From sequence record PZ445532.1: a stretch of DNA of 44,581 nucleotides, one strand, 5' to 3'. The notes under the pieces were generated by a model, which worked only from the letters and a program-made list of their open reading frames with translations, made no database searches and had not been told where the DNA came from. How positions within the stretch are numbered: position 1 is the stretch's first letter; the number at the start of each line of letters is the position of its first letter. A program made the position numbers and the translations under genes. Shown here piece by piece: positions 5,819-43,966 of the stretch. Source of the DNA: a phage.

Positions 5819-5960
5819 TTCCTCATGTTGGTGTGCAACCAATATACTGCAACCAACATACGCAATGCAAGCGAATTTTGCGATTATTTTTATCACTGAT
5901 AATATTAGAGGCGTGAAGTCGAGCGGGTGGCCCGCTCTGCCACAATCCCAGGGGGATAGC

Positions 5961-24932: not shown

Positions 24933-24996
24933 GATGTTTTCCTTTTTAGTGGGAGGCGGTATTGCCTCCCGATGTGGTTAAGATACTGCAACCAAC

Positions 24997-25467
24997 CTAT
25001 TGGTTGCAAGTGAATTTTGCAACGTTTATTGCGTAAATTTTCGGGACTAAATCGCCGCACGCCCGACGAATTGCCGCGATGTTCTTCGGACAGTCTTCAA
25101 TGATGACCAGTTCCGATACGTCCGCATAGCAGACCATTTTGAACACAGCGCACGCCTTAAACTCTGGCGGCGGGGTATCGTCCAGCATGTGGCGCATAAA
25201 CAACCGGCCTGTAGGGAATACTTCCAGTTGTTCGGCGGTGGTGTCCCAACATTCTCGCTGCCGGTTGGTCAGATACGCGATCTCGAAGCCTTGCTCTTTG
25301 TACATGGTCAGCAGCAGCAGCATATCCATGTTAAGGTCTTCGCGGACGTGCGCCTTGTGCCACTTCGCCCAGAAGGTGGATTTAGTTTTTATACCCGGCA
25401 CCAGGTCGGCACGCGCATCGCTTGAACCGTTAATAACTCCATCCAAATCGCAAATCAGTAATTTCAT
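24997..25467 (-). CDS. HAD-superfamily hydrolase (putative phosphatase/nucleotidase)
   Basis: N-terminal LICDLDGVI matches HAD motif I (DxDG). Confidence 0.55.
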   Translation of the reverse strand: MKLLICDLDGVINGSSDARADLVPGIKTKSTFWAKWHKAHVREDLNMDMLLLLTMYKEQGFEIAYLTNRQRECWDTTAEQLEVFPTGRLFMRHMLDDTPPPEFKACAVFKMVCYADVSELVIIEDCPKNIAAIRRACGDLVPKIYAINVAKFTCNQ

Positions 25468-26599: not shown

Positions 26600-26680
26600 C
26601 GTGTCGTCTCCAGGTATTAAAAAGGGCGTCCAAACCGGACACCCTCAATATAATGCGACCAAGCCTATTATGCAACCAAA

Positions 26681-33807: not shown

Positions 33808-33897
33808 TTTCCAATTCCTCATTTTCACATGTATCGGGGTTATTGGAAGCCACCCCGTTCGGCTTGGTTGCTAATCTACTTGGTTGCGCCTGAGCGG

Positions 33898-36567: not shown

Positions 36568-36908
36568 GGTATATCTCCGATTGGTTAAGTTTAGGTGTCG
36601 GCAGTTAACTTCGTCGGTGGCCTTAACATAGTGCCTGGTTACGCGTTCTCCCGTTCGGGTAGTGGACCAGGTTATATAATCACGGTTGGGAATCCTGACA
36701 CTTCGATCCGGCCCCTGCGTTGCCCCTCTCCAGTTTGCGTCCTGCATCCTGTCGACGGAGTGAATAATAGATTGGTTGCAGAAGGGAGTCAACAACTAAT
36801 TTAAAAAAAAAGCGCCGAGGCAAAATGCAACGGCGCTAACCAATAAGAGACAATGAGACGGGATTTATTATTACACGCGTGCGCGCCCGTTTCAATATTC
36901 CAGAGGAG

Positions 36909-39890: not shown

Positions 39891-40105
39891 CATAAAATCC
39901 AGGATGCACGACGCACGGCAGCATGATGCAAATTGCGGTCGTCGATGAACTAGGCAACCAATGCGAGTTGCAGAATGGTGGGTGGAAAATGCAGTTTGCA
40001 GTCACAGCAGATAGCGATCGACTTTTTCATGCGCGTGATTAATATTGGTTGCATTCGCCCTGGCACACTGCTATATTGGTTGCACACCAACATGAGGACT
40101 GAACA

Positions 40106-40829: not shown

Positions 40830-41450
40830 AAATTACTATTCCGCCGCAACCACGACGGCTGTATCGTGGATCCGGTCCAGGTAAGGGCCTTGACTAAGAA
40901 CGTGCTCCTATGCCGCCAGGCAAGCGGCAAAGTATTCAGCACGCTGCCGCAGTTCTTCACAGTCCACACCCACGATATTGAGCGCGGCGATGTGCTGCGT
41001 GATATTCGCGACGGGCAACTGTGGGTAGTCGAGTACACCTCCAAGCACGGCTTGCGTATGCAGACCCGCAAGGGCGGCGTAGTGGGTAGCGTTCAGAGGG
41101 GTATGACGTACTTCGGGCTGGTCAACTACGAGCGCGTAGGCCGCAAATACTGCCTGCGCGACCGCCAGCCGCATGAGCGCGCGATCGCCATAGCGGATGC
41201 CGTTAACCGCGTAACGCATGATGTGGCGCAGAAGTGCGCGGAGTTCCGCAAGTCACAGCCCGCCTATGCGACCTACGACGCGAGCAAAGTGATGGATCCG
41301 ATACGCCAGGCGACGCATGAGATTATTAATCGCTTCGATGCCGTGACGATCGCCCAGCGCCAGGCTAAGGAGTACGGCGTGGGCTTCATCCGGGTCGAAC
41401 CAGACGGCAACATGACCGCCATCGACCCGCGCTCGGTAATACTGAAATGA
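40827..41450 (+). CDS. hypothetical protein
   Basis: 207-aa ORF. Confidence 0.55.
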   Translation: MKLLFRRNHDGCIVDPVQVRALTKNVLLCRQASGKVFSTLPQFFTVHTHDIERGDVLRDIRDGQLWVVEYTSKHGLRMQTRKGGVVGSVQRGMTYFGLVNYERVGRKYCLRDRQPHERAIAIADAVNRVTHDVAQKCAEFRKSQPAYATYDASKVMDPIRQATHEIINRFDAVTIAQRQAKEYGVGFIRVEPDGNMTAIDPRSVILK

Positions 41451-41593
41451 GCGCAACTATCCGCGATATGCTCATGCATAACCGCTTTGAGATAGGCGGG
41501 CGAGTATTCCGCAATTACTTCGTGGCGCGTGCATGGGCGCGCCATATTGGCAAACCGGAAGGGGCAATTCGATGCTATACGTCTTCGCGGTAG
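41447..41593 (+). CDS. small hypothetical ORF (48 aa)
   Basis: ATG overlaps the upstream stop (ATGA). Overlaps the 41572 peptide ORF in another frame, so only one of the two may be real. Confidence 0.25.
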   Translation: MSATIRDMLMHNRFEIGGRVFRNYFVARAWARHIGKPEGAIRCYTSSR

Positions 41594-41673
41594 TATGTGG
41601 CGGTAGTCTGGCGGCCCTGGTGCTGTTGGCGTCGGTTATTAGTCTGGTTAAATACCTATGGGGCAGATTATGA
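41572..41673 (+). CDS. hydrophobic micropeptide (33 aa, single predicted TM helix)
   Basis: MLYVFAVVCGGSLAALVLLASVISLVKYLWGRL. RBS GGAAGGGG 8 nt upstream. Stop overlaps the next ATG. Confidence 0.35.
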   Translation: MLYVFAVVCGGSLAALVLLASVISLVKYLWGRL

Positions 41674-41957
41674 TTCATGATGTGATTTATTGGTTTGGTA
41701 TGGCAAGCATATTATGCCTGGTTACGGGAGCGCTGGGCGCGATATGGGTATTCCTGGTATGGCCCGCCGTGGAAGCCGCCAGCATTACCCGCATGACGTT
41801 CGAGGTATACAAGCGCCGTGGAATCACGGAGCACCCGACCAGGTTGCGCATGTGGTGGCTGTGGTATCGGGATATGATTGGGGGCCGGATGTTCGAGGCC
41901 GTCAGATCGGAAGGATGGGAGTGGAAAGGCGTCGGCAAGTGGTCCGTTTTCGATTAA
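41670..41957 (+). CDS. membrane protein
   Basis: 95 aa from MIHDVIYWFGMASILCLVTGALGAIWVFLVW. One N-terminal TM helix, Trp/Arg-rich tail. Confidence 0.5.
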   Translation: MIHDVIYWFGMASILCLVTGALGAIWVFLVWPAVEAASITRMTFEVYKRRGITEHPTRLRMWWLWYRDMIGGRMFEAVRSEGWEWKGVGKWSVFD

Positions 41958-41974
41958 TTATGCAAGCGTGATAT

Positions 41975-42009
41975 AGTCCCAGTGAGATAAAACTTACTGG
42001 GACTTTTTT
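41975..42009 (+). terminator. rho-independent terminator
   Basis: AGTCCCAGT-(12-nt loop)-ACTGGGACT followed by TTTTT. Confidence 0.7.
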
Positions 42010-42300
42010 ATGGATAAGCTAAACGAGTGGTTATTCGCCCTTGCGTGTCTTGCTGGTGGCTTCGTCGGCGCACGCATTCATGGCGAGGCAACGAAAGGGC
42101 CGTTGAACTTCGTTTTATATATCGTGGTTGGCTTCCTGTGTGCCATATTTGGTGCGCCAGCTATTGCCGAGTGGTCTGGTTTGTCTGGTGAGCGCACTGT
42201 TGCCGGTTTGGGCTTCGTAACTGCCATCTTCTGGATGCCAATAGCGGACCGGATCCGGGAGACTATTGCGTCGTTCCGACTTCCAGGGGGTGCAAAATGA
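42010..42300 (+). CDS. holin-like membrane protein
   Basis: 96 aa with 2-3 hydrophobic helices, immediately upstream of the endolysin block. Confidence 0.6.
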   Translation: MDKLNEWLFALACLAGGFVGARIHGEATKGPLNFVLYIVVGFLCAIFGAPAIAEWSGLSGERTVAGLGFVTAIFWMPIADRIRETIASFRLPGGAK

Positions 42301-42542
42301 TTATCTCCGTCCTGTTGTTTGTTATCATAGGGGCTTCGTCCCTGTTTAACGTGTATGCGCCGTCCGTTCAGGATGGCATCTTAGGCCGGGTGCTGTATCT
42401 GTTAACGGCAATGATCTGTCTTATCGGATTGCTGCAAACAGGAGACGTATCGGATACCACCTGGACCGCGTTAATCTGGCTGTTTGCATTGCGCACACTG
42501 CGTAATGCTGTTTTAAATGGGGTAAAACATGCGATTCAGTGA
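42297..42542 (+). CDS. second holin/antiholin-like membrane protein
   Basis: 81 aa with hydrophobic helices. Start and stop overlap the neighbouring genes. Confidence 0.5.
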   Translation: MIISVLLFVIIGASSLFNVYAPSVQDGILGRVLYLLTAMICLIGLLQTGDVSDTTWTALIWLFALRTLRNAVLNGVKHAIQ

Positions 42543-43020
42543 TAACGGTCTACGATTTACGGCAGCATGGGAGGCTTTCAGCCCAGTGCCGTATTTCGCG
42601 ACCAAGAAAGAGCAGGCCCGCGGCCTGTACACCTGGGGTTATGGGCACACCGGCACTAATCCGCCACGAAGCATTACCCGTGCGGAAGCGCTGGAACTGC
42701 TCAAGCGAGATGTGGCGTATGCCGAGGACTGGGTGAACAAATACGCACATCCGAGCATTAACCAGGCGCAATTCGACGCGCTGGTGGACCTGGTAATCAA
42801 TGCCGGTCAGGGTCCGATCGTACCGGATGACGTCGCGAATGATTTCGACGATGCGGTCCGCCTGGGCGACTGGGCGAAGGTCCGTGCTACACTGCCGCAG
42901 TTCCGCAAGCAAGGCGGGGAAGTGCTTAAGGGTCTGGTGCGCCGTGCAATCGGTAGACAGGCGTTGTTTGATGGTAAGCAGTGGGACGTTGCCGAGAAAA
43001 TCGGGCGTAACGCAGCATAA
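42529..43020 (+). CDS. endolysin (GH24 lysozyme-like)
   Basis: 163 aa with the lysozyme-like block YTWGYGHTG and surrounding conserved acidic residues. Confidence 0.85.
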   Translation: MRFSDNGLRFTAAWEAFSPVPYFATKKEQARGLYTWGYGHTGTNPPRSITRAEALELLKRDVAYAEDWVNKYAHPSINQAQFDALVDLVINAGQGPIVPDDVANDFDDAVRLGDWAKVRATLPQFRKQGGEVLKGLVRRAIGRQALFDGKQWDVAEKIGRNAA

Positions 43021-43035
43021 TACGAGGAACACAAT

Positions 43036-43449
43036 ATGTTAAAAAGCATTCTTGATCATAACGCCGACGCACTTGCTGCACTGGCTAAAACCGAAGACCC
43101 TGGCGCACGCGCTATCATCGCGGACACTATCAGCCATGCAGGCGTCTTTGACGCGAAGCTGCCGAGTGTGCCGGAAAGAAAGCCCGTGGCAAGTGCGACC
43201 GTAACCATCACCCCAGTGTCAGCCGCAGTTGGTGCGAAGGCCACCGCTTCTGTTGCCGTCCTGCCATCCGACGCAACTAACAAGGCCGGGAAGTGGGTGT
43301 CCGCAAACCCTGACTGCGCGGCAGTCAACCAGACTACCGGCGAAATCACAGCAAAATCGGAGGGTGGCGTCCACATCTTTTGGGTGGCATCCGATGGAGG
43401 CGGGGCGATGGCGTCCGCCATCTTCACCGTAACGGGAGCAGGAAAATAA
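43036..43449 (+). CDS. Ig-like (Big_2-like) domain protein
   Basis: 137 aa. C-terminal half resembles bacterial Ig-like domains (...ITAKSEGGVHIFWVASDGGG...FTVT). Confidence 0.55.
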   Translation: MLKSILDHNADALAALAKTEDPGARAIIADTISHAGVFDAKLPSVPERKPVASATVTITPVSAAVGAKATASVAVLPSDATNKAGKWVSANPDCAAVNQTTGEITAKSEGGVHIFWVASDGGGAMASAIFTVTGAGK

Positions 43450-43455
43450 AACCAC

Positions 43456-43481
43456 AAGCCCGGTTAATTCCGGGCTTTTTA
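43456..43481 (+). terminator. rho-independent terminator
   Basis: AAGCCCGG-TTAATT-CCGGGCTT followed by TTTTTA. Confidence 0.75.
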
Positions 43482-43545
43482 TTGCTTGACTTGCAACCAA
43501 CTATCAGACCATACTGCTACCAATCGACGAGAGGAGTATTACACT

Positions 43546-43632
43546 ATGGCACGTAATGATATTTTGGTGTTGGCAATATGGTCCACTGCGGCATTCATTG
43601 GTATGGTTATTTGTCAGGTGATAAATGGCTGA
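43546..43632 (+). CDS. hydrophobic micropeptide (28 aa)
   Basis: MARNDILVLAIWSTAAFIGMVICQVING. Strong RBS GAGAGGAG 7 nt upstream. TGCAACCAA motif at 43492. Not in the ORF track (below 60 aa). Confidence 0.35.
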   Translation: MARNDILVLAIWSTAAFIGMVICQVING

Positions 43633-43700
43633 GTTAATCCGCCTTATGGCGCGAGATGAACACGTAAAAGTCACATTCTACGATGGTGGGAAGTGTTGAG

Positions 43701-43913
43701 ATGATTAGACAAGTATTCATGAGCACGCAGGCCACACGCCTGAAAGAGCTACGCAAACAACTCGAAGGCTTGCGCCGATTCGAACGAACGGCAACGGCAA
43801 TAGGCATGTCAATCAGTGAGCGGATCGAGATACTATCTCAAATACGCTACACAGAAGGCGCCATACGCGAAGTAGAAAGCATGTTAACCCGATACTACGG
43901 TCGTGCCGTTTAA
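43701..43913 (+). CDS. hypothetical protein
   Basis: ORF track 43683..43913. The internal ATG at 43701 (MIRQVF...) has better RBS spacing. Charged, helical-looking. Confidence 0.45.
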   Translation: MIRQVFMSTQATRLKELRKQLEGLRRFERTATAIGMSISERIEILSQIRYTEGAIREVESMLTRYYGRAV

Positions 43914-43940
43914 CCCTCCCAGCCCGCCGATTTGGTGGGC

Positions 43941-43966
43941 TTTTTTGTGCCTGTTATAATCCCCCT
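43941..43966 (+). terminator. rho-independent terminator
   Basis: AGCCCGCC-GATTT-GGTGGGCT (one G-U pair) followed by TTTTTT. Confidence 0.6.

Follow-up and report, generated by a model that had tools for sequence, protein, structure and literature searches.

Introduction

Holins and antiholins are phage-encoded inner-membrane proteins with genes near that of the endolysin, and the known holin classes range from about 60 to 220 aa. Morons, or accessory mini-cassettes, consist of a promoter and a small gene inserted between conserved genes, as in lambdoid phages. Type I toxins (TisB, IbsC, ShoB, DinQ, Ldr, Hok) are small hydrophobic peptides with a single helix. In bacteria, too, larger membrane proteins can be under the control of small ones, among them MgrB, AcrZ, MgtS, KdpF and CydX (PMC12648545). 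Several Dhillonvirus genomes have hypothetical proteins that are the same genes as the two short open reading frames (ORFs) described here, pep1 and pep2; identity is 94-100% for pep1 and 72-93% for the core of pep2. These annotated versions carry no function, and several have longer upstream starts (46 to 49 aa).

Like the bacterial regulators, pep1 and pep2 have fewer than 50 aa, one predicted transmembrane helix and short polar ends; they differ in that there is no sequence similarity and in being phage-encoded and known from sequence alone. They share with holins and antiholins a predicted inner-membrane location and a gene near the endolysin, but at 33 and 28 aa they are smaller, and they lie outside the lysis transcription unit. 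The likeness to type I toxins is that of small hydrophobic single-helix peptides, but pep1 and pep2 have neither a family match nor a convincing antisense RNA gene; the phage that carries them is virulent, and E. coli genomes do not contain them. The pep2 unit resembles a moron in having its own promoter, in sitting between a terminator and the next gene, and in being present or absent among relatives. It differs in being in a virulent phage, in a coding part of 26 to 29 codons, and in having no terminator of its own at the end of the unit. On balance, we lean towards reading pep1 and pep2 as genuine translated accessory genes of Dhillonvirus, encoding membrane-helix peptides outside the lysis unit that would act as modulators.

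Results

Two hydrophobic ORFs in a Dhillonvirus genome

The window, by which we mean the whole stretch of DNA analysed, is the complete 44.6-kb genome of a Dhillonvirus (HK578-like) coliphage. Table 1 collects the features around the two ORFs. An initial annotation made from this sequence had proposed both, and its placements prove exact when coordinates, lengths and ribosome-binding sites are re-read. The overlap it described between the pep1 stop and the next start is also present, with the ATG at 41670-41672 running into the TGA. The single-helix hydrophobic character that it attributed to both peptides is borne out as a prediction by a strong overall hydrophobicity (GRAVY 1.79 for pep1 and 1.33 for pep2) and by best 19-aa Kyte-Doolittle windows of 2.45 and 2.14, long enough to cross a membrane. 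Both fit the general class of single-pass small membrane proteins, which stay below 50 aa and contain one hydrophobic stretch at least about 19 residues long; the most likely product of each ORF is a peptide with a single transmembrane helix that would insert into the host inner membrane. In pep2, a polar N-terminus (MARND) is followed by about 20 hydrophobic residues. The orientation of pep1 would be N-out/C-in, judging from K27 and R32 at its C-terminal end, and that of pep2 is predicted to be N-in/C-out.

Table 1. Features of the pep1 and pep2 regions, in positions of the window.
Feature	Position	Strand	Details
48-aa gene (phrog_13628)	41447..41593	+	directly 5' of pep1; CDS annotated in relatives
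Shine-Dalgarno-like GGAAGGGG	41557..41564	+	7 nt before the pep1 ATG
pep1	41572..41673	+	ATG 41572, TGA 41671-41673; 33 aa, MLYVFAVVCGGSLAALVLLASVISLVKYLWGRL; predicted single transmembrane helix
98-nt indel, putative origin of pep1	41582..41679	+	from comparison with relatives; flanking-gene positions in 25 loci
95-aa membrane protein gene (phrog_2531)	41670..41957	+	ATG overlaps the pep1 stop (ATGA)
Intrinsic terminator	41975..42004	+	between the pep1 operon and the first holin; annotated in PTXU06 and CS16
Lysis cassette	42010..43020	+	holin 42010-42300, holin 42297-42542, endolysin 42529-43020
Intrinsic terminator	43456..43477	+	closes the lysis cassette and Ig-like gene; annotated in PTXU06
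pep2 operon promoter, sigma-70-like (predicted)	43486..43523	+	TTGACT 43486-43491, 18-nt spacer, CATACT 43510-43515
Shine-Dalgarno GAGAGGAG	43529..43536	+	9 nt before the pep2 ATG
pep2	43546..43632	+	ATG 43546, TGA 43630-43632; 28 aa, MARNDILVLAIWSTAAFIGMVICQVING
24-aa remnant ORF	43625..43699	+	ATG overlaps the pep2 end (ATGGCTGA)
70-aa gene (phrog_20931)	43701..43913	+	final cistron of the pep2 operon
Intrinsic terminator	43921..43941	+	ends the pep2 operon, 5' of the small terminase gene

A filter for ORFs of 19-50 aa with a Shine-Dalgarno-like motif and a hydrophobic stretch of 17 aa with a score of 2.0 or more returns only pep1 and pep2 from both strands of the window. Genomes simulated with a second-order Markov model contain 0.52 qualifying ORFs each versus the two observed, and 7 of 60 runs produce two or more, so the sequence features alone are not beyond chance. 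The case for coding is made by the comparison with relatives. There, both ORFs are intact, with start codons and ribosome-binding sites kept and an excess of synonymous changes in the proposed frame. The exceptions among all fetched carrier loci are a deletion in SO-1 and a lost stop codon in HH3.

The proposal that size filters miss such genes holds for most records, which have no annotation for either ORF, and fails for a few. For pep1, a hypothetical protein has been called in Oekolampad (bas18_0059), Zumzum (CDS0038) and EE09 (EE09_45, a 46-aa call), and nothing in slur05, Sponge, JLBYU37, SECphi4, welsh, JL1 and CS16. For pep2, 40 of the 60 tblastn matches listed have no annotated feature beneath them, and Opt212 has it annotated (Opt212_5) in an extended 49-aa form. 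Neither ORF is mentioned in the BASEL paper or in the P78 paper.

pep2 and its operon

Of about 153 records from related phages, tblastn detects pep2 in 111, with 72-89% identity. The conserved core is the first 24 codons, MAR[NK]DIWVLAIW..AAFIGMVICE, and the last 2-5 codons vary with the downstream gene module. The copy in the window, with this 24-residue core and a GAGAGGAG site and located 3' of the lysis-cassette terminator, falls in the same family as Opt212_5. An ATG and a Shine-Dalgarno site of the GAGAGGAG type are present in all 24 distinct versions of pep2. Among 22 distinct nucleotide versions, third codon positions account for 17 of the 30 variable sites in codons 1-24. The minimum number of events is 20 synonymous and 19 non-synonymous, which corresponds to a dN/dS of about 0.25 (P = 3e-5). 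In the other two sense frames the ratio is 1.0 and 1.6, and in the stop-free antisense frame 0.95. From this pattern of substitution, pep2 is very probably coding. It stays intact in front of three different downstream modules, and it has been lost through at least three different deletions. Some alleles have charged residues inside the helix, as in W12R (L008) and G19D (EP23).

pep2 would be the first of three cistrons in a short self-contained operon, followed by the 24-aa remnant, the 70-aa gene and the terminator. The lysis cassette lies on one side of this operon and the small terminase gene on the other, and its predicted promoter carries two TGCAACCAA-type sites. The motif that had been noted upstream of pep2 is TGCAACCAA itself, found at 43492-43500 within the spacer of the predicted promoter. 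The second copy, TGCTACCAA, is at 43515-43523, just past the -10 element. The 24-aa remnant derives from a 56-aa Cys-rich gene, intact in KarlBarth and L018, that has been cut by a 91-nt deletion.

pep1 and the 98-nt insertion

pep1 is present in 52 records with at least 94% identity, and it is missing from about two thirds of the relatives. It is identical (100%) to its homologue in Oekolampad, where the gene order also matches, and its near-identical 33 aa at the same position between the 48-aa and 95-aa genes place it in the bas18_0059-like family. In 19 fetched loci, there are 0 frameshifts or stops. The same 19 loci give 8 synonymous and 5 non-synonymous events, only 13 in all, for a dN/dS of about 0.23 (P = 0.009); the neighbouring genes give ratios of 0.17 and 0.40, and one stop-free antisense frame of pep1 is nearly as low (0.29, P = 0.026). 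Every amino-acid replacement exchanges one small or polar residue for another (S, G, A, N). Synonymous diversity in pep1, at 0.30 events per site, is about three times below the values of its flanks (0.81 and 1.13). We consider pep1 likely to be coding, with somewhat less assurance than pep2. Proteomics of the Dhillonvirus EE09 did not have the pep1 homologue among the detected proteins, in a data set where lysates yielded just 24 phage proteins and infected cells 4 (PMC10673088).

In relatives that are free of the insertion, the site homologous to the pep1 Shine-Dalgarno and ATG is the annotated start of the 95-aa gene; therefore, ribosomes starting there must translate pep1. The alignment points to a scenario in which pep1 would have arisen when 98 nt entered the 95-aa membrane-protein gene three codons from its start. 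The ribosome-binding site and ATG that once served this gene would now be those of pep1, and translation of the 95-aa protein would restart at a repeat of the start region, with coupling to pep1 via the ATGA overlap. The edges of the indel are ambiguous by a few nt because its flanks repeat (GGGGCAATTCGATGCTATACGAT and GGGGCAGATTATGATTCATGAT). The 48-aa gene shares its final 22 nt with the start of pep1. A GGGG at 41660-41663 may be a weak Shine-Dalgarno site for the 95-aa gene. An AlphaFold2 model of the 95-aa protein has a mean pLDDT of 68.7 and is confident only in the transmembrane helix. That transmembrane segment is strongly variable whether pep1 is present or not, whereas pep1 is nearly invariant, which argues against a specific pairing of the two.

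Alternative explanations

Both ORFs could be translated to no end of their own. pep1 would then be a coupling leader that sets the level of the 95-aa protein, as its place at that gene's original start and its terminal ATGA overlap allow, and the pep2 ORF would be incidental to a regulated promoter. In relatives, the indel that carries pep2 brings the TGCAACCAA promoter as well, and in the types of this phage and of Opt212 pep2 overlaps the next start codon. Purifying selection on the amino acids in the proposed frames is unexpected if only the act of translation mattered. Moreover, pep2 is uncoupled in most relatives, with 62 nt to the next gene, and L008 and L019 keep it as a second cistron although an inserted 75-aa gene separates it from the promoter. 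We regard translation without function as unlikely, if the best placed of the alternatives.

The suggestion in the initial annotation that such peptides modulate lysis finds no support in the arrangement of the locus. As antiholin-like factors or helpers, pep1 and pep2 would tune holin triggering or lysis timing. They do flank the holin-holin-endolysin cassette, each at less than 1 kb, they are predicted single-helix membrane peptides, and holins work in the same membrane. The two holin genes encode 96 and 81 aa and match phrog_2359 and phrog_2508. However, the pep1 operon ends 5' of the first holin gene and pep2 lies 3' of the terminator that closes the cassette, with a promoter of its own. 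The terminators at both ends set the peptides apart from the cassette and therefore leave a role in lysis without positional support. A holin or antiholin would sit inside the cassette, co-transcribed with the endolysin, and neither peptide does. pep1, pep2 or both are missing from relatives that share the two holins and have endolysins of 95-99% identity, and so neither can be a required part of the lysis machinery. Neither peptide matches a holin, spanin or other lysis family in PHROG or Pfam, where the neighbouring holins do match. A lysis role is, in our estimate, slightly less probable again than translation without function. As for a spanin identity, the lipobox [LVI][ASTVI][GAS]C is not fitted by AVVC at residues 6-9 of pep1 or by MVIC at residues 20-23 of pep2, and the N-region of pep1 has no positive charge before AVVC.

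Searches of Pfam, PHROG, NCBIfam and PDB sequences give no match to pep1 or pep2. With upstream-extended ORFs as queries against a large protein database, pep1 retrieves only two Dhillonvirus clusters and pep2 none. In an exhaustive HMMER search with the 48-aa extended form of pep2 against 1.84 billion representatives, the genuine matches are two clusters, of 29 and 47 aa; a third match is repetitive and spurious. The anti-Tmn gene of Dhillonvirus is a different and larger protein, ORF35 (PMC11846954).

In a further reading, the peptides would be membrane-damaging toxins of the TisB, IbsC and ShoB kind that depolarise the host membrane, perhaps checked by an antisense RNA. Their size and layout, with a short polar end and one helix, do resemble type I toxins (reviewed in PMC12648545), positions 43585-43556, antisense to pep2, weakly resemble a promoter, and the terminator upstream also scores on the minus strand. 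The promoter-like site has only a 9/12 match, and shuffled sequence yields 3.7 such sites in the region. No type I toxin family (Hok, Ldr, Ibs, ShoB, TisB and others) matches in Pfam or NCBIfam at E-values up to 10, an addiction module has no obvious use for a virulent phage, and 5,426 E. coli genomes contain no match from which the pep1 or pep2 segment could originate. We hold toxins of this type to be improbable.

Least probable are chance ORFs within conserved non-coding or regulatory DNA, for which the simulations above and the scant variation and unusually low synonymous diversity of pep1 (which could reflect nucleotide-level constraint) would speak, but against which stand the frame-specific substitutions of pep2, the near-complete retention of both ORFs in carriers, the start of pep1 at a proven gene start, and the lack of any RNA signal in the pep2 region (Rfam matches all below gathering thresholds and located on terminators; folding stability z = 0.57).

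Discussion

The reading we prefer, of pep1 and pep2 as translated accessory genes, comes with a mechanism in which each peptide would bind and modulate a conserved inner-membrane protein, with a host partner more likely than a phage partner. The analogy with the small bacterial membrane regulators makes this mechanism a tentative proposal, to which we would give slightly less than even chances. The broader suggestion of the initial annotation, modulation of host membrane proteins, is plausible. As far as genome comparison goes, pep1 and pep2 are dispensable, and because both genes are often absent, any benefit from the peptides would be conditional.

pep1 is possibly a recently born gene: the 98-nt insertion would have taken over the start signals of the 95-aa gene (ribosome-binding site and ATG) and provided that gene with a second start. 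We think this origin rather doubtful. The new gene may then have reached about a third of the genus through recombination, with the low synonymous diversity counted as support. The inserted 98 nt may have begun as a copy of the stretch at the start of the 95-aa gene that encodes its transmembrane segment, and have diverged since. This idea is weakly supported: against one type of 95-aa N-terminus, only 7 of 2000 composition-preserving shuffles align to pep1 as well as the real sequence, a figure uncorrected for 12 comparisons, and a nucleotide-level comparison of pep1 with the start of the 95-aa gene gives no duplication signal.

Duplicated start modules likewise flank the 75-aa gene inserted before pep2 in L008 and L019. 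Together with the pattern of the pep1 insertion, these suggest recombination at start-region repeats as a general route by which these phages gain small genes.

Many short phage ORFs go unannotated and few are backed by evidence; pep1 and pep2 are two concrete candidates, limited to one genus. For coding, the evolutionary evidence is good in the case of pep2 and moderate in that of pep1. The sequenced relatives already offer natural knock-outs, and the public BASEL collection has carriers in Oekolampad (both peptides) and KarlBarth (pep2, with the module type of this phage), so function is directly testable. The result is an ordinary one, of modest interest, and its practical consequence is small for now: annotation of these phages should take in both genes. 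Should the peptides turn out to act on host envelope proteins, they would be additions to the short list of phage-encoded micropeptide regulators.

Two conserved hydrophobic small ORFs

The 33-aa ORF (pep1) and the 28-aa ORF (pep2) are conserved, frame-specific and start-competent small ORFs that each encode one hydrophobic helix, and each belongs to a compact operon that is separate from the lysis unit. The coordinates, sequences, ribosome-binding sites, ATGA stop/start overlap and TGCAACCAA motif of the initial annotation are all correct on re-checking, and the hydrophobic character that it described is strong in both peptides. No other ORF of 19-50 aa in the genome has both a Shine-Dalgarno-like site and a hydrophobic stretch of 17 residues. 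Second-order Markov simulations produce 0.52 such ORFs per genome (two or more in 7/60 runs), so the sequence features alone are only suggestive. Neither peptide has a match in Pfam, PHROGs, NCBIfam, PDB sequences, Rfam or E. coli genomes, and the large protein collections hold no copies outside Dhillonvirus. A lipobox, also looked for, is absent from both. The expectation that annotation misses such ORFs holds in part: pep2 is rarely annotated, and pep1 is already a hypothetical protein in a few genomes.

Genomic context

The region has many relatives at ~90% identity among the Escherichia phages of the genus Dhillonvirus (HK578-like siphophages), with 153 matching records. The window covers an entire genome, with its first base at the large terminase ATG and its last within the small terminase gene. 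The last four genes of the pep1 operon encode, in order, proteins of 207 aa and 48 aa, pep1 and a 95-aa membrane protein; a terminator follows. Next is the lysis cassette, made up of two holin genes and one for an endolysin, then an Ig-like gene and another terminator, 3' of which lies a short operon with pep2 as first gene. This operon runs promoter, pep2, 24-aa ORF, 70-aa gene (phrog_20931), terminator. Its promoter is TTGACT-18-CATACT; TGCAACCAA lies within the spacer, and TGCTACCAA immediately follows the -10 element.

TGCAACCAA has 12 exact copies in 44.6 kb, where ~0.3 are expected for a 9-mer. The copies are usually paired at promoter-like sites: the first follows TTGAC(T/C) within the spacer, and the other stands immediately 3' of the -10 element. 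One site is a perfect inverted repeat, TGCAACCAAcctaTTGGTTGCA. TGCAACCAA resembles an operator through which a regulator encoded by the phage would control a set of promoters, that of pep2 included.

Coordinates of the features, in the window and in loci of relatives
Feature	Sequence	Positions
pep1	window	41572..41673
95-aa protein (phrog_2531), N-terminal transmembrane segment	window	41670-41760
pep2	window	43546..43632
24-aa ORF	window	43625-43699
Site lacking the phosphoesterase gene	window	43633-43700
Phosphoesterase gene region	L001	2649-3800
Conserved TGGTATATT	L001	2610-2650
75-aa gene insertion	L008	3496-3740
Extended pep2 ORF	L047 (phage HH3)	401-559
TGCAACCAA sites	window	5834-5856, 24987-25008 (inverted repeat), 26654-26679, 33864-33888, 36772-36780, 40045-40084, 43492-43523

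Conservation and coding of pep2

The conservation and Ka/Ks comparison with relatives that had been proposed as a check was run for both ORFs. A tblastn search places pep2 in 111 phage records with identities of 72-89%; every one is a Dhillonvirus, Sodalis phage SO-1 among them. We collected 30 carrier loci from GenBank phages, IMG/VR and metagenomes, which give 24 distinct DNA versions, 22 of them used for the core. Conservation covers codons 1-24, where third positions account for 17/30 variable sites. On 15.2 synonymous and 56.8 non-synonymous sites, a tree-free minimum count finds 20 and 19 events, respectively, a dN/dS of ~0.25 (binomial P = 3e-5). Ratios in the two remaining sense frames are 1.0 and 1.6, and the stop-free antisense ORF has 0.95; an antisense frame with the same third positions has 0.39, but is interrupted by a stop. 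No version has lost the ATG or a GAGAGGAG-type Shine-Dalgarno site, and a few alleles have a charged residue within the helix. Nothing points to a structured RNA in this region, which has no RNA family match and no unusually good fold.

The last 2-5 codons vary with the gene downstream. Where a 1143-nt phosphoesterase gene follows, the tail is ELI or ELL; with a 56-aa Cys-rich gene next it is EVING, and with a 57-aa gene EVMYG-like. Across Dhillonvirus, the slot after pep2 holds at least three alternative gene modules. The phosphoesterase gene (calcineurin-like, DNA repair exonuclease) is present directly 3' of pep2 in most of these phages and absent from the window. Here the 24-aa ORF, which overlaps the end of pep2 with its ATG, is the remnant of the 56-aa Cys-rich gene (...GGKCCRVECCDRGVKMQFEGY...) after a 91-nt deletion. 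That gene is intact in phage KarlBarth and locus L018, and metagenome contig L031 has the same deletion. In phage HH3 the pep2 stop codon is gone, and the ORF extends to 52 aa, overlaps the phosphoesterase start and carries a hypothetical-protein annotation.

The gene is dispensable: promoter and pep2 are missing exactly from one group of relatives, the deletion in locus L027 has another junction, and SO-1 has an internal 53-nt deletion. In phosphoesterase-type relatives, the stretch from pep2 to the phosphoesterase gene contains a conserved, extended -10-like TGGTATATT; this sequence persists where the pep2 cassette is lost, and so may be a second promoter, for the phosphoesterase gene. In loci L008 and L019, a 75-aa gene is inserted between promoter and pep2, 3' of the pep2 ribosome-binding site, flanked by duplicated start modules GAGAGGAGTATTACACTATGG and GAGATGGAGTTACACTATGG; pep2 is retained with a rebuilt ribosome-binding site.

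Origin and coding of pep1

pep1 is found in 52 records at 94-100% identity. The alignment of relatives has two forms at this locus. PTXU06, HK578, SO-1 and the more distant locus L023 have the short form, where the 95-aa gene has GGGGCAATACGATGCTACACGAT as its ribosome-binding site and start, in agreement with the annotation. The long form has 98 additional nucleotides after the third codon, and the old ribosome-binding site and ATG of the 95-aa gene now open pep1. At its end the insertion carries another, similar start region (GGGGCAGATTATGATTCATGAT), from which the 95-aa gene opens anew; the ATG there overlaps the stop of pep1. If the short-form start is in use, as implied by its annotation and conservation, then pep1 must be translated in the long form. 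The short form is the one in the most distant relatives, an indication that the insertion is derived.

Among 19 loci there are eight distinct versions of pep1, none disrupted. The 8 synonymous and 5 non-synonymous events give a ratio of 0.23 (P = 0.009), on few events and with one antisense frame at 0.29. Replacements are confined to S, G, A and N. In the same loci the ratio is 0.17 for the 48-aa gene and 0.40 for the 95-aa gene. Synonymous diversity is 0.30 events per site in pep1 versus 0.81 and 1.13 in the flanks, which fits a younger segment spread by recombination, or added nucleotide-level constraint.

The transmembrane segment of the 95-aa protein is very variable among close relatives, and the protein is nearly invariant from WPAVEAASITRMTF onward; its AlphaFold2 model is confident for the helix only. 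A specific pairing of this helix with that of pep1 is unlikely, because pep1 is nearly invariant while the segment occurs in several very different types, each with and without pep1.

Discussion

Of the initial proposal, the coding and membrane part is well supported for pep2 and moderately for pep1; the link to lysis is not supported, both ORFs lying outside the lysis unit. Pure translational coupling, to which the stop/start overlaps of both ORFs lend themselves, is a less likely role next to the low amino acid replacement ratios. Size and layout resemble both bacterial small membrane proteins and type I toxins (PMC12648545); toxin action we consider less likely, and the evidence for an antisense RNA gene is a background-level promoter match only. 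A role in lysis timing is also less likely, and in size, family and position neither peptide fits a holin. Chance ORFs, which the simulated genomes do yield, are a less likely explanation of reading frames and starts conserved in this way.

We favor insertion of both peptides into the inner membrane, pep1 probably with the basic C-terminus facing the cytoplasm and pep2 with its MAR(N/K)D end inside. There they would modulate a conserved membrane protein, probably of the host, and give the phage a conditional advantage. How pep1 arose is the more interesting side issue. The 98-nt insertion and that of the 75-aa gene share one pattern, which suggests gene gain by recombination at start-region repeats.
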